Shown here one piece after another: positions 49,798 to 52,700 of a DNA stretch of 64,000 nt. This DNA comes from an uncultured Clostridium sp. (GTDB lineage: Bacteria; Bacillota; Clostridia; TANB77; CAG-508). The stretch is taken from assembly GCA_964449925.1 (NCBI GenBank), contig CAYVCM010000001.1, forward strand, positions 10,306-74,305, given 5' to 3'. Each line of letters opens with the position of its first letter. Position 1 is the first letter of the stretch. Both the position numbers and the translations under genes were made by a program. Under the pieces are notes generated by a model. The model saw only the letters and a program-made list of their open reading frames with translations, was not told where the DNA came from and searched no databases.

Positions 49798-52700
49798 TTA
49801 TTCTTCTTCCTTTGAATTTTTTCTCTTAACTATAATTCCTGCTGTTACACCTGCAACAACTAATATTGCTACGATGACTCCAATAGATATGTATAATGCT
49901 GTACCAGTTTTTACACTTATAATAACATCTGCATATCCTATATCATTTTCACCACTAACATTGTTACCTGGTGTTGAGTTAATATCATCTAAACCTTGAT
50001 TATTATATGCTTCATAAATTTCTGCATTATTTCTTGTAACTAAGTTGTCTTCTCCCATTGTTTTTGTTAATGTTAATGTAACTGTTTTGCTTTCGCCTGG
50101 GTTAATTATTTCATTGCTTAATGCTGTTGTATATAAGTAGTTTCCACTTAAATACCAATCACTATTCAAATCTGCACTAAATTCTAAATCACTTGGTAAG
50201 TAATCTACTATGCTTCTTGCATATCCTGCTACTTCTCCAACATTTGTTACAACAATTTCGTATTCAATAACAACATTTGTGCCACTCATTTCTTTTGAAC
50301 TTAATTCGATTTTTGCTGTTGTTGTATCTGTATATTCTCTTGTTGTTGTTCCTGATGTACTGTTTTGAGTTATAATTCTACTAATATATTTGTCTAATTT
50401 TAAGTCAAATGTTTGTAAATCTATTAAACCTATATTGATGTTTGAAACATTGTTAGATTCAATGCTTATAATATCTGTTGATGCTACTTCTTGTTTTTCT
50501 CCTTCTATTAGTAATTCATTTGTTCTAGCATTTGAATTTTCTGAATCTGAAACACCATCTGCTTGATATGTAGTTAGTGAGTATGTTGATTCATCATAAT
50601 CAAATATTACAATATATTGTCCATCTGAAAGATTTTCTAAAACATACATACCATTTGAATTAGTAGTTGCTTCTAAAACATTTCCACTTGTATTTCTTAC
50701 AAGTTGATTTGTTTCTACATTTAATAATCTTACTGTTATTCCTGATAATGTTGATTCACTACTACTTTTTCTACCATCATTATCTTCATCATACCATGCA
50801 TATCCACTAATCATTTGTGTTCCATTTGCAATATTTCCACTTTCTCCATCATCTGTATCTGTTCCTGTAGTTGTATTTTCATCATCATCTTCCACATCTG
50901 CTGCTATTACATGGTTTATAGCTGATGTTTCTGCTACTTCTTCTCCATATATACTAGCAGTTGCCATATTTGTAATTGTTTCTGCTTCTGTTCTTCCTTC
51001 TACATAGTCTACAACTGTTTCTATAACAATTTCCATTTCACTGTTTGCTTCAACTTCTTCTGTAATTTCTACATTATTACTTGTTATATCTGTTTCTTCA
51101 CCATTTACAGTGACACTTTGTACTGTTAATTGAGAAGGTATTGCATCACTAATTGTTAATCCATTTGTACTTGATTCACTTGTGTTATTTACGCGAATAG
51201 TATAAATAATATTATCTCCAGATTTTACATATCCATCTTCTGTATTAGCTTCCATTGACATTTCTATATCAAAACTATTTACTGTATCTATCCATTGATT
51301 TGATCTATGGCTAATTGTTCCATCAGATGCAACAATTGAAATTTCAACTGTGTCTGTATCTGCTGGCATTGTACCTATTTCCATTATGTATTCAATAATT
51401 TTTGATTCTCCTGGCTCTAATGTACCAATATTGATTTCATCACTATATTCTATCTCTTCTGAAGTAACTTCTGATGATGTAGCATATGATTCATCATCTT
51501 CTGATACTTCTGGAACATTGTCTGATGATATTATATATATGTCATCATCTGATACTTCATCTTCTCCAACACCTGAAATAATTGTTACTCTTGATACTTG
51601 TAAGCTATCTGATTTATTTGTTTGTACTGTAACATTGTTTATTGTTTCTGATGTTGTATTTTTTACAATACCATAATAAGCTACTGTTCCTGATTCATAT
51701 AAATCAACTGTTCTATCTGTTACTCTTTTTACCATTGCTCTTAAAGTTCCAGTACCTGATGTTACAGTTAATTCATTTGTTTCTTGTACTACATCTGAGA
51801 AATTAATTTCAGCTGTACCTGTAATACTTGTTCCTTCCTCTAAATCAGATTCAACCATAACCTCATATTCTACATATGTTACTTCTCCAACTGCCAAAGA
51901 TTCAATAGTTGTTCCATATGCATTTGTTTCAACTTCTGTATAATAAGAAGCTCCTGTATATTCATAATTATCTACTGGTTCTACTAGCACAGTTCCATCT
52001 GGTATATTTCCTGTAACTGCTATATCACTAACATCTTCTGAACCAACATTAGATACTTCTATACAATATTTAATAACTTCTCCGTTTCTAACTATGCTTG
52101 AACTTGTTAGTTCTTCTCCTCCAACTGTTGCAGATATACTTGTTTCTAATTTTGGTCCTACACCTGTTTCCATTGATATATCTGTTGCTGATACTGTACT
52201 TTCAGTTCCTGTTCCTGCATTTGTATATGTAATTGCATATCCTTCTGTTGCTGTTTGGTTATATTCTAGATTTTGTGGTACTTCAATTGTGTATGAACCA
52301 CCAACTAATGTTCTAGATGCAATACTATCCATAACAATTAAATATTTTTTAACTTCAGTAGAACTTGTTAGTTCTTCTGTCCAAGCATTTTCTTCGTCTT
52401 CTAAATCTGCTGTTGCATCTTCATTTTCTGTATAATATACTGTTGCATTTTCTATACTAATTCCATCGATTATTTCTATATCTATGTTATTTTCTTCTGT
52501 GTCTGTTTTTGTTGGAAATGTTCCTAATATATATACATTATTTAAATCTTCTTCATTATTATTAATGATTTCAAATGTAACTTCCATTTGTATAGCATCT
52601 GTTCCTCTTTGTAAACTAACACTAGTTTCTTCATCTTCTCCTATTGTTTCTACATCTAAAGCTTCTATTGTGTTAATTGCTGTTACATCTTTTGGTGCTA

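Follow-up and report, generated by a model that had tools for sequence, protein, structure and literature searches.

The giant putative adhesins encoded in a 64-kb stretch of DNA from an uncultured Clostridium sp. (contig CAYVCM010000001.1; the whole stretch of 64,000 nucleotides is called the window here) carry tails of two types, A and B, in which a pentapeptide ending in Thr-Gly is followed by a hydrophobic helix and a basic end. We consider the chances slightly better than even that the tails of both types are sortase substrates, served by a sortase whose gene is not linked to them. The more unusual element of this system is a conserved, putative internal sorting signal, which is coupled to a signal-peptide-like helix in an in-frame fusion of an A and a B module. 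An initial annotation of the window had described the pentapeptide-helix-basic tail on every copy, and we recovered it on all five, i.e., on four modules and one remnant, at the following coordinates (ORF, open reading frame; aa, amino acids):

49798-54726, minus strand: A' gene, 1,642 aa, with a Sec signal peptide, a long DUF11/CLIPPER and SdrD_B stalk, a C-terminal CLIPPER-like domain and the tail
49798-49917, minus strand: A' tail, with SVKTG (49903-49917), a 25-aa hydrophobic helix, KRKNSKEEE and the stop codon
45805-49776, minus strand: B' gene, 1,323 aa, with a signal peptide, a class II thioester-like N-terminus, a SpaA/CnaB-type and SdrD-like stalk and the tail
45805-45921, minus strand: candidate sorting signal of B', with TPNTG (45907-45921), the polar spacer DNQNY, a helix, KKKVLKK and the stop codon
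36729-45476, minus strand: fused A-B ORF, 2,915 aa, made up of module A (about 1,370 aa) and module B (about 1,500 aa), with Pfam matches to DUF11, SdrD_B and SpaA
41208-41396, minus strand: internal junction of the fused ORF, with SVSTG (41382-41396), helix 1 (41313-41381), the basic loop KKKHINIRKVLRIGK (41268-41312) and helix 2 MIVFVLVFSTIVFSQQITEA (41208-41267)
36729-36845, minus strand: B tail at the end of the fused ORF, with TPPTG (36831-36845), the spacer SDETIKYWMYG, a helix, KRKVL and the stop codon
10413-10922, minus strand: A-type remnant ORF, 169 aa, with a partial DUF11/CLIPPER domain, no signal peptide and a TVSTG tail
10524-10538, minus strand: TVSTG of the remnant tail, followed by the spacer LDRNDR, a helix and KKKEKKHKS

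The stretch originally flagged, 49798-49920 on the minus strand, consists of the stop codon (49798-49800), the 34-aa tail TALYISIGVIVAILVVAGVTAGIIVKRKNSKEEE (49801-49902), SVKTG (49903-49917) and one further codon, and the motifs stand in the contexts ADVIISVKTGTAL and VIVTPNTGDNQ. That every copy is C-terminal, as the initial annotation had it, was borne out for A', B', B and the remnant, but the SVSTG copy of module A lies inside the fused ORF. A six-frame search of the 64 kb with a regular expression for xxxTG, a helix and basic residues returned six matches, namely the four module ends, one internal membrane segment of SpoIIE and one short spurious ORF, and the tail pattern is beyond chance.

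Homologues of 30-80% identity, about 120 of the A type and 98 of the B type, have the motif in the same register, and it is also kept in the 80 related loci that were fetched from species-representative genomes with 10-kb flanks. These loci belong to metagenome-assembled genomes from the guts of chicken, rabbit, mouse, human and other hosts, and share at most 74% identity. A profile search of 1.84 billion representatives returned mostly unrelated giant SdrD_B-repeat proteins and added many more A-type tails. Free alignments of 38 tails of each type leave Thr and Gly as the only invariant columns for A, and Thr, Gly and one Ile for B; with the last 300 aa of A aligned over 117 sequences, Thr265 is among just 9 invariant columns. 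In distinct DNA contexts, 130 of the A type and 77 of the B type, the Thr codons (ACA/ACT/ACG/ACC) and the Gly codons (GGT/GGA/GGG) vary synonymously; as TG was a requirement of the pattern used to select these contexts, this does not count as independent evidence of invariance.

Judged by its sequence, the B-type tail is an ordinary signal of the LPXTG family except for its first residue, which is unusual (Thr for Leu). The B' tail alone scores 19.2 bits on the LPXTG_anchor model TIGR01167 (cut-off 15.9; 13.6 bits when full-length B' is scanned) and 13.8 against a cut-off of 20 on the Pfam model Gram_pos_anchor (PF00746); the TPPTG tail of the fused ORF matches neither of the two. Among homologues, 32 of 38 B-type tails match LPXTG_anchor at E<=1. 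Over the 98 B-type homologues the motif reads [TVI]P[ANSP]TG, with occasional LPPTG, IPPTG and NPPTG, and its variants also grade into VPPTG; Pro stands at position 2 in approximately 88-95% of the copies and TG in all of them. Behind the motif follow a polar spacer, E-N-x-N-Y-[IV]-[IL]-P, then the helix and then IKKKVL, and beyond the Gly the tails have Asn at +2 (95 of 114), Tyr or Phe at +5 and Pro at +8. Weaker matches of the tails were obtained with other sortase-signal models, Rumino_NPXTG and Microco_LAVTG (best E ~1e-3).

The N-terminal part of the B-type proteins points in the same direction as their tails. TIE (thioester-isopeptide-ester) proteins, i.e., thioester adhesins that bind their targets covalently, are described as sortase-anchored proteins of Gram-positive bacteria, and their thioester domains (TEDs) are marked by a Cys in [YFL]CΦζ, a Gln in ΦQζΦΦ and a TQxxΦW motif (PMC6194298). 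The AlphaFold2 (AF2) model of the B' N-terminus (residues 1-330, 48787-49776) reaches a predicted local distance difference test (pLDDT) value of 88.6, and in the PDB it best matches the folds of two class II thioester domains from the TIE proteins EfmTIE86 and BaTIE, entries 6FWY and 6FWV; the E values are 2e-6 to 4e-5, but the template modelling (TM) score is only about 0.32. At the sequence level, this domain matches neither the Pfam TED family nor PDB sequences. Cys51 (LFCVE), Trp117 (VQNAIW) and Gln281 (YQNLI) are invariant in 34 B orthologues, in contexts that fit the published TED motifs (PMC6194298). Because the predicted fold and the invariant Cys, Trp and Gln fit TEDs, the B-type protein is in our model a TIE-type adhesin with a class II thioester-like domain and a predicted thioester bond, on a stalk of SpaA/CnaB-type and SdrD-like domains (Pfam). 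The Gln of the TQxxΦW-like motif VQNAIW is replaced by Ala or Ser in many B orthologues. A thioester-like N-terminus is also present in the fused B module, at about 40,400-41,200.

The A-type motif reads [SG][IV][RKSV]TG over about 120 homologues. Val in the place of Pro, which the initial annotation had described for the A type, is right for the window copies, but the lineage consensus is S-I-R-T-G, with Ile commoner than Val, and a minority of homologues has Pro at position 2, in register (GPKTG, GPSTG, MPSTG). Unlike in the B tails, the A-type helix directly abuts the TG, with no polar spacer in between. LPXTG_anchor is matched at E<=1 by 14 of 38 A-type homologue tails, and the TVSTG tail of the remnant passes the cut-off of this model (16.6 bits against 15.9) and outscores the intact A tails.

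The C-terminal domain of A has, by profile as well as by fold, the CLIPPER/DUF11 fold, a CnaA-like beta-sandwich. PF01345 (DUF11) scores 37.0 in A', 43.2 in the fused ORF and 30.6 in the remnant against a cut-off of 24.6, the C-terminal domain scores 40.8 on TIGR01451 against a cut-off of 24, and in A' the Pfam families DUF11 and SdrD_B and the NCBIfam family B_ant_repeat are all above cut-off. In the fold search, the A' C-terminal domain matched CARDB (3IDU) and CLIPPER (9IFR). CLIPPER is a CnaA-like domain, often with an isopeptide bond, and is typical of the stalks of fibrillar adhesins (PMC12617251). In the last A' domain (49798-50700, residues ~1343-1642), three conserved residues, Lys130, Asp166 and Asn224 (numbered within the fragment), show a spacing similar to that of the Lys-Asp-Asn isopeptide triad in a solved CLIPPER domain (PMC12617251), which by analogy suggests a domain covalently locked by a putative isopeptide bond right beside the A' anchor. 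When the 300 C-terminal residues of A' are modelled with AF2 (pLDDT 89.6), the last beta-strand runs through IGYADVIISV, with Ser and Val of SVKTG inside the strand. As both residues belong to the last strand of the fold, the conservation of Ser and Ile/Val in the A motif may be structural. A protein identical to A' is found on a 14-kb Logan contig.

The products of A', B' and the fused ORF each have an N-terminal Sec signal peptide, in which a basic n-region precedes a hydrophobic core that ends in an AxA-like site (SYA/AD, SKA/AY and VNA/EE), and the best explanation for the A- and B-type products is that they are Sec-exported giant fibrillar adhesins with stalks of isopeptide-type Ig domains (CLIPPER/DUF11, SdrD_B and SpaA). 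Their C-terminal domains are homologous, sharing STPGN...(E/D)(N/D)D..A(D/E)-strand-xTG, and the A and B signals thus appear to be versions of one ancestral signal. Since the tails sit on homologous domains and some A-type members keep the Pro, the A signal S[IV]xTG, which abuts the helix, is best explained as a Pro-less derivative of the B-type signal. Giant SdrD_B proteins of other phyla that were found with the same profile carry LPxTG or LAxTG tails, or C-termini that resemble known sorting domains by eye, so that the tail position can be regarded as the seat of a sorting signal.

Sortase processing is the likeliest mechanism for both tail types, and we lean towards it by a small measure, because the TG that would flank the scissile bond is invariant, B tails match a sorting-signal model and graded variants lead to PxTG, and also because the proteins appear to be covalently cross-linked adhesins, of which B would bind covalently. 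After Sec export, the helix and the basic residues would retain the protein in the membrane. The sortase, whose gene would lie in another part of the genome, would cleave the bond within the invariant Thr-Gly pair and attach the Thr to peptidoglycan.

Several observations weigh against this mechanism. The A motif has no Pro, and the A' and A tails match neither LPXTG_anchor (TIGR01167) nor Gram_pos_anchor (PF00746). Ser and Val lie within the last strand of the A' model and the linker between domain and helix consists of K-T-G-T only, i.e., of 4 residues, which leaves little room for a sortase at this motif. In C. difficile, the motif NVQTG of CbpA, which is Pro-less and Val-containing like SVKTG, was not cleaved by SrtB in vitro (PMC4155245), and two proteins with perfect SPxTG motifs were unprocessed in vivo, which calls for caution (PMC5569036). 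For the B type, the spacer behind the TG seems to be conserved more than expected for a peptide that is discarded. Finally, a sortase was not found within 10 kb of the cluster in approximately 90 related loci.

The lack of a linked sortase is compatible with sorting, because housekeeping sortases are usually encoded apart from their substrates, and an unlinked gene would not be unusual. The window was searched in six frames with a regular expression for TLxTC-like motifs, and the four A/B-family ORFs and a further 20 of at least 150 aa were scanned with Pfam. The regular expression gave only antisense or MreD false matches and no TLxTC-like motif in any real ORF of the 64 kb, and the Pfam scans of the window ORFs detected no sortase, rhomboid, CPBP or exosortase family; the initial annotation had likewise reported no sortase gene in the window. 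There was also no sortase motif in the real ORFs of the 80 related loci and no sortase in the precomputed Pfam annotation of eight further contigs.

The fused ORF adds a second aspect. At its SVSTG copy no stop codon follows the KKKH, and the frame continues into the B module for about 1,500 further residues, with helix 2 ending in a signal-peptidase-like TEA/AYYY. There is no Shine-Dalgarno sequence before the internal ATG of the window fusion, whereas B' has a strong one (aggaggag) upstream. Of the 80 related loci, 20 have the same kind of in-frame A-B fusion, situated near position 19,200-19,500 of the locus, which makes 21 with the window; in about 26 other loci, the second A gene stands alone and is of a different subtype. 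The loci with the fusion are:

L004, L012, L013, L014, L016, L018, L024, L034, L040, L041
L042, L050, L052, L053, L054, L059, L062, L069, L070, L078

An origin of the fusion in faulty sequencing or assembly was rejected, because these 20 other loci have the same in-frame junction and the internal ATG has no Shine-Dalgarno sequence in front of it. From its recurrence, the A-B fusion appears to be old and maintained. The internal TG is kept in 21 of 21 fused genes, and in about 12 junctions that were read, helix 2 retains a basic n-region and an AxA-type end (VNA/Y, VQA/H, VDA/Y, SIA/D, VSA/E). The retention of both the sorting motif and the signal-peptidase site suggests that the fused polyprotein is cut into two products. 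Helix 1 would stop transfer, the basic loop would stay cytoplasmic and helix 2 would re-initiate export of the B module as an internal signal peptide; a sortase cut at the TG and a signal-peptidase cut after helix 2 could then release two separately anchored adhesins. The full proposal, in which an undescribed Pro-less sortase motif, S-[IV]-x-T-G, is joined without a gap to the last strand of an isopeptide stalk domain and the polyprotein is cut into two wall-anchored adhesins that leave a helical hairpin of about 60 residues behind in the membrane, is tentative, and we would put it well short of an even chance. A literature search on internal sorting signals or polyproteins yielded nothing relevant and no precedent for the fusion arrangement.

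The initial annotation had offered two alternatives, a sortase encoded elsewhere or plain transmembrane anchors, and these are still the right pair. The main rival to sorting of both tails combines them: only the B [TVI]PxTG tails would be sorted, and the A S[IV]xTG tails would be permanent membrane anchors, which would form a helical hairpin in the fusion. Ser and Ile/Val would be kept as a strand end, and Thr-Gly as a strand-to-helix turn or as a helix cap at the membrane surface. The AF2 model, with Ser and Val in the last strand followed by a KTGT linker and the helix, agrees with this arrangement, as do the missing polar spacer after the Gly of A tails and the failure of the A' and A tails to match the two anchor models, one of which B' passes; the uncleaved NVQTG of C. 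difficile adds to it. However, Thr and Gly are stricter than nearly every core residue of the adjoining domain, for which a turn alone is a poor explanation. The matches of 14 of 38 A tails to LPXTG_anchor, the in-register Pro in some A-type members and the homology of the A and B tails also speak against a separate fate of the A tails, which we regard as unlikely.

Somewhat less likely again is that no sortase is involved at all and that both tails are plain membrane anchors, the matching sortase having been lost or never present and the xTG being either structural or a relic. The search of approximately 1.7 Mb of lineage DNA around A/B genes found no sortase, the tails would serve as anchors without processing, and the fused protein would be topologically viable uncleaved. 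A relic should decay, yet the TG is invariant down to about 30% identity, and 32 of 38 B tails match a curated sortase-signal model. Covalently binding thioester adhesins, moreover, are described as sortase-anchored (PMC6194298). The habit of housekeeping sortases of lying apart from their substrates, set out above, takes weight from the negative search.

An enzyme of another kind that acts at or near Thr-Gly is improbable, and ranks behind both of these alternatives. A rhomboid or another intramembrane protease, or an unrecognised sorting enzyme of the exosortase, archaeosortase or rhombosortase kind, would release the proteins or link them to a partner that is not peptidoglycan. As in substrates of membrane-embedded sorting enzymes, the A motif lies directly against the helix, the generic motif-helix-basic layout is common to -CTERM systems, and the conserved B segment after the TG hints at recognition beyond the pentapeptide. 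But the NCBIfam -CTERM models stay below threshold, with matches driven by the helix (Loki-CTERM 14.1 against 19.9, Heimdall-CTERM 7.3 against 24), the best-scoring signal models are all sortase ones, and the scanned ORFs of the window include no gene for an exosortase, rhomboid or CPBP protein. An exosortase-type or other -CTERM signal was rejected on these NCBIfam scores, and a pilus with a class C sortase is disfavoured, as no locus has an adjacent sortase and the proteins are too large.

Sortase recognition of both tails can be compared with several known systems. With the LPXTG signal of sortase A or housekeeping sortases (TIGR01167, PF00746), the tails share the Sec signal, a pentapeptide ending in Thr-Gly, the helix and the K/R tail on a multi-domain adhesin, and the B tails further share the position-2 Pro and a spacer that is acidic or polar; B' and the remnant pass TIGR01167. 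They differ in that position 1, instead of Leu, is occupied by Thr, Val or Ile in the B tails and by Ser or Gly in the A tails, the latter also having Ile or Val for Pro and lacking the spacer. The model cut-offs are not reached by the A', A and B tails, copy A is internal to the fused ORF, and no sortase was found at these loci.

Lineage-specific departures from LPXTG are already well known, e.g., C. difficile (S/P)PxTG, Rumino_NPXTG and Microco_LAVTG. The initial annotation had placed the motifs closest to the (S/P)PxTG class of C. difficile SrtB substrates (e.g., CD2831 and CD3392), which are likewise clostridial Ig-like stalk adhesins with PxTG and a position 1 other than Leu. This placement could not be established: position 1 of the B type is Thr, Val or Ile, not Ser or Pro, and [SP]-P-x-T-G is absent among the 98 B-type homologues, the nearest variant being NPPTG. 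The NCBIfam models Rumino_NPXTG, Microco_LAVTG and sorting_LPXTATN represent recognised departures that include the loss of Pro (LAVTG), but none describes S[IV]xTG or TPxTG, and their matches to our tails are weak.

Pilin sorting signals, [IVY]PxTG or EVPTG, directly follow the last strand of the C-terminal Ig domain and are handled by class C or class B sortases. The Val, Ile or Thr at the first position here resembles pilin motifs, and so do the position of the motif after the last beta-strand with almost no linker in the AF2 model and the clustered, alternating genes; however, no pilin-specific sortase adjoins the cluster in the ~90 loci, and the proteins, with 1,300-2,900 aa, are far larger. 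The TIE proteins BaTIE and EfmTIE86 resemble the B-type proteins in the N-terminal fold, the Cys, Trp and Gln residues, the CnaB/SpaA-type stalk and the C-terminal sorting signal. B is much larger, would be anchored by TPxTG instead of LPxTG, and has no sequence-level TED match and a TM score of only ~0.32.

If sorting holds true for the A tail, sortase specificity would be widened to a Pro-less motif that is flush against a folded domain. Predictors of surface proteomes, most of which require PxTG, would then miss the largest surface proteins of widespread uncultured Clostridia of animal and human guts. For the fusion, cutting into two products could provide a simple route to two anchored adhesins at a fixed 1:1 ratio. 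To our knowledge, the conserved fusion would be the first example of a sorting signal that works from within an ORF in combination with an internal signal peptide. Were the A tails merely membrane anchors, the locus would be an ordinary adhesin cluster, and the invariant Thr-Gly would stay a small structural puzzle.

The three large minus-strand genes, A', B' and the fused A-B ORF, lie in a window with a G+C content of 28.7% and the housekeeping set of a spore-forming Firmicute, with mreB, mreC, mreD, a penicillin-binding protein (PBP) gene and minC upstream of the cluster and spoIIE downstream. MreC, MreD, PBP and MinC were named by precomputed Pfam matches on the corresponding contig, and DnaB, L9, a GdpP-like DHH protein, RpoB/RpoC and SpoIIE were recognised by eye among the other window genes. 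The adhesin cluster (36729-56528) is flanked by minC and spoIIE here and, among contigs on which both flanks are readable, also in L001, L083, L084, L085 and L089; on the minC side, mreB-mreC-mreD-PBP precede, and two small divergent ORFs separate the cluster from minC. Because it sits between minC and spoIIE, the adhesin cluster looks like a conserved core chromosomal locus of the lineage and not like a mobile island.

The two small ORFs are Asn-rich (181 and 132 aa, 54952-55885, plus strand), run divergently from A' and have no family match; equivalents are found at the same spot in the relatives L001, L083 and L089, and the two could be regulators of the cluster. On the other side, a WG-repeat protein and then a protein of about 410 aa without a known family follow 3' of spoIIE. 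The A-type remnant sits between the GdpP-like DHH gene and rplI. A more distant relative, L082 (ENA contig scaffold_2970, 350-20822), has a different, duplicated arrangement, with Cna_B-rich proteins of 1,617 aa that have TPPTG ends, A-type proteins with QVATG, a long helix and a ...KEERR tail, and a thioester-like N-terminal piece that is called as an ORF of its own (192 aa).

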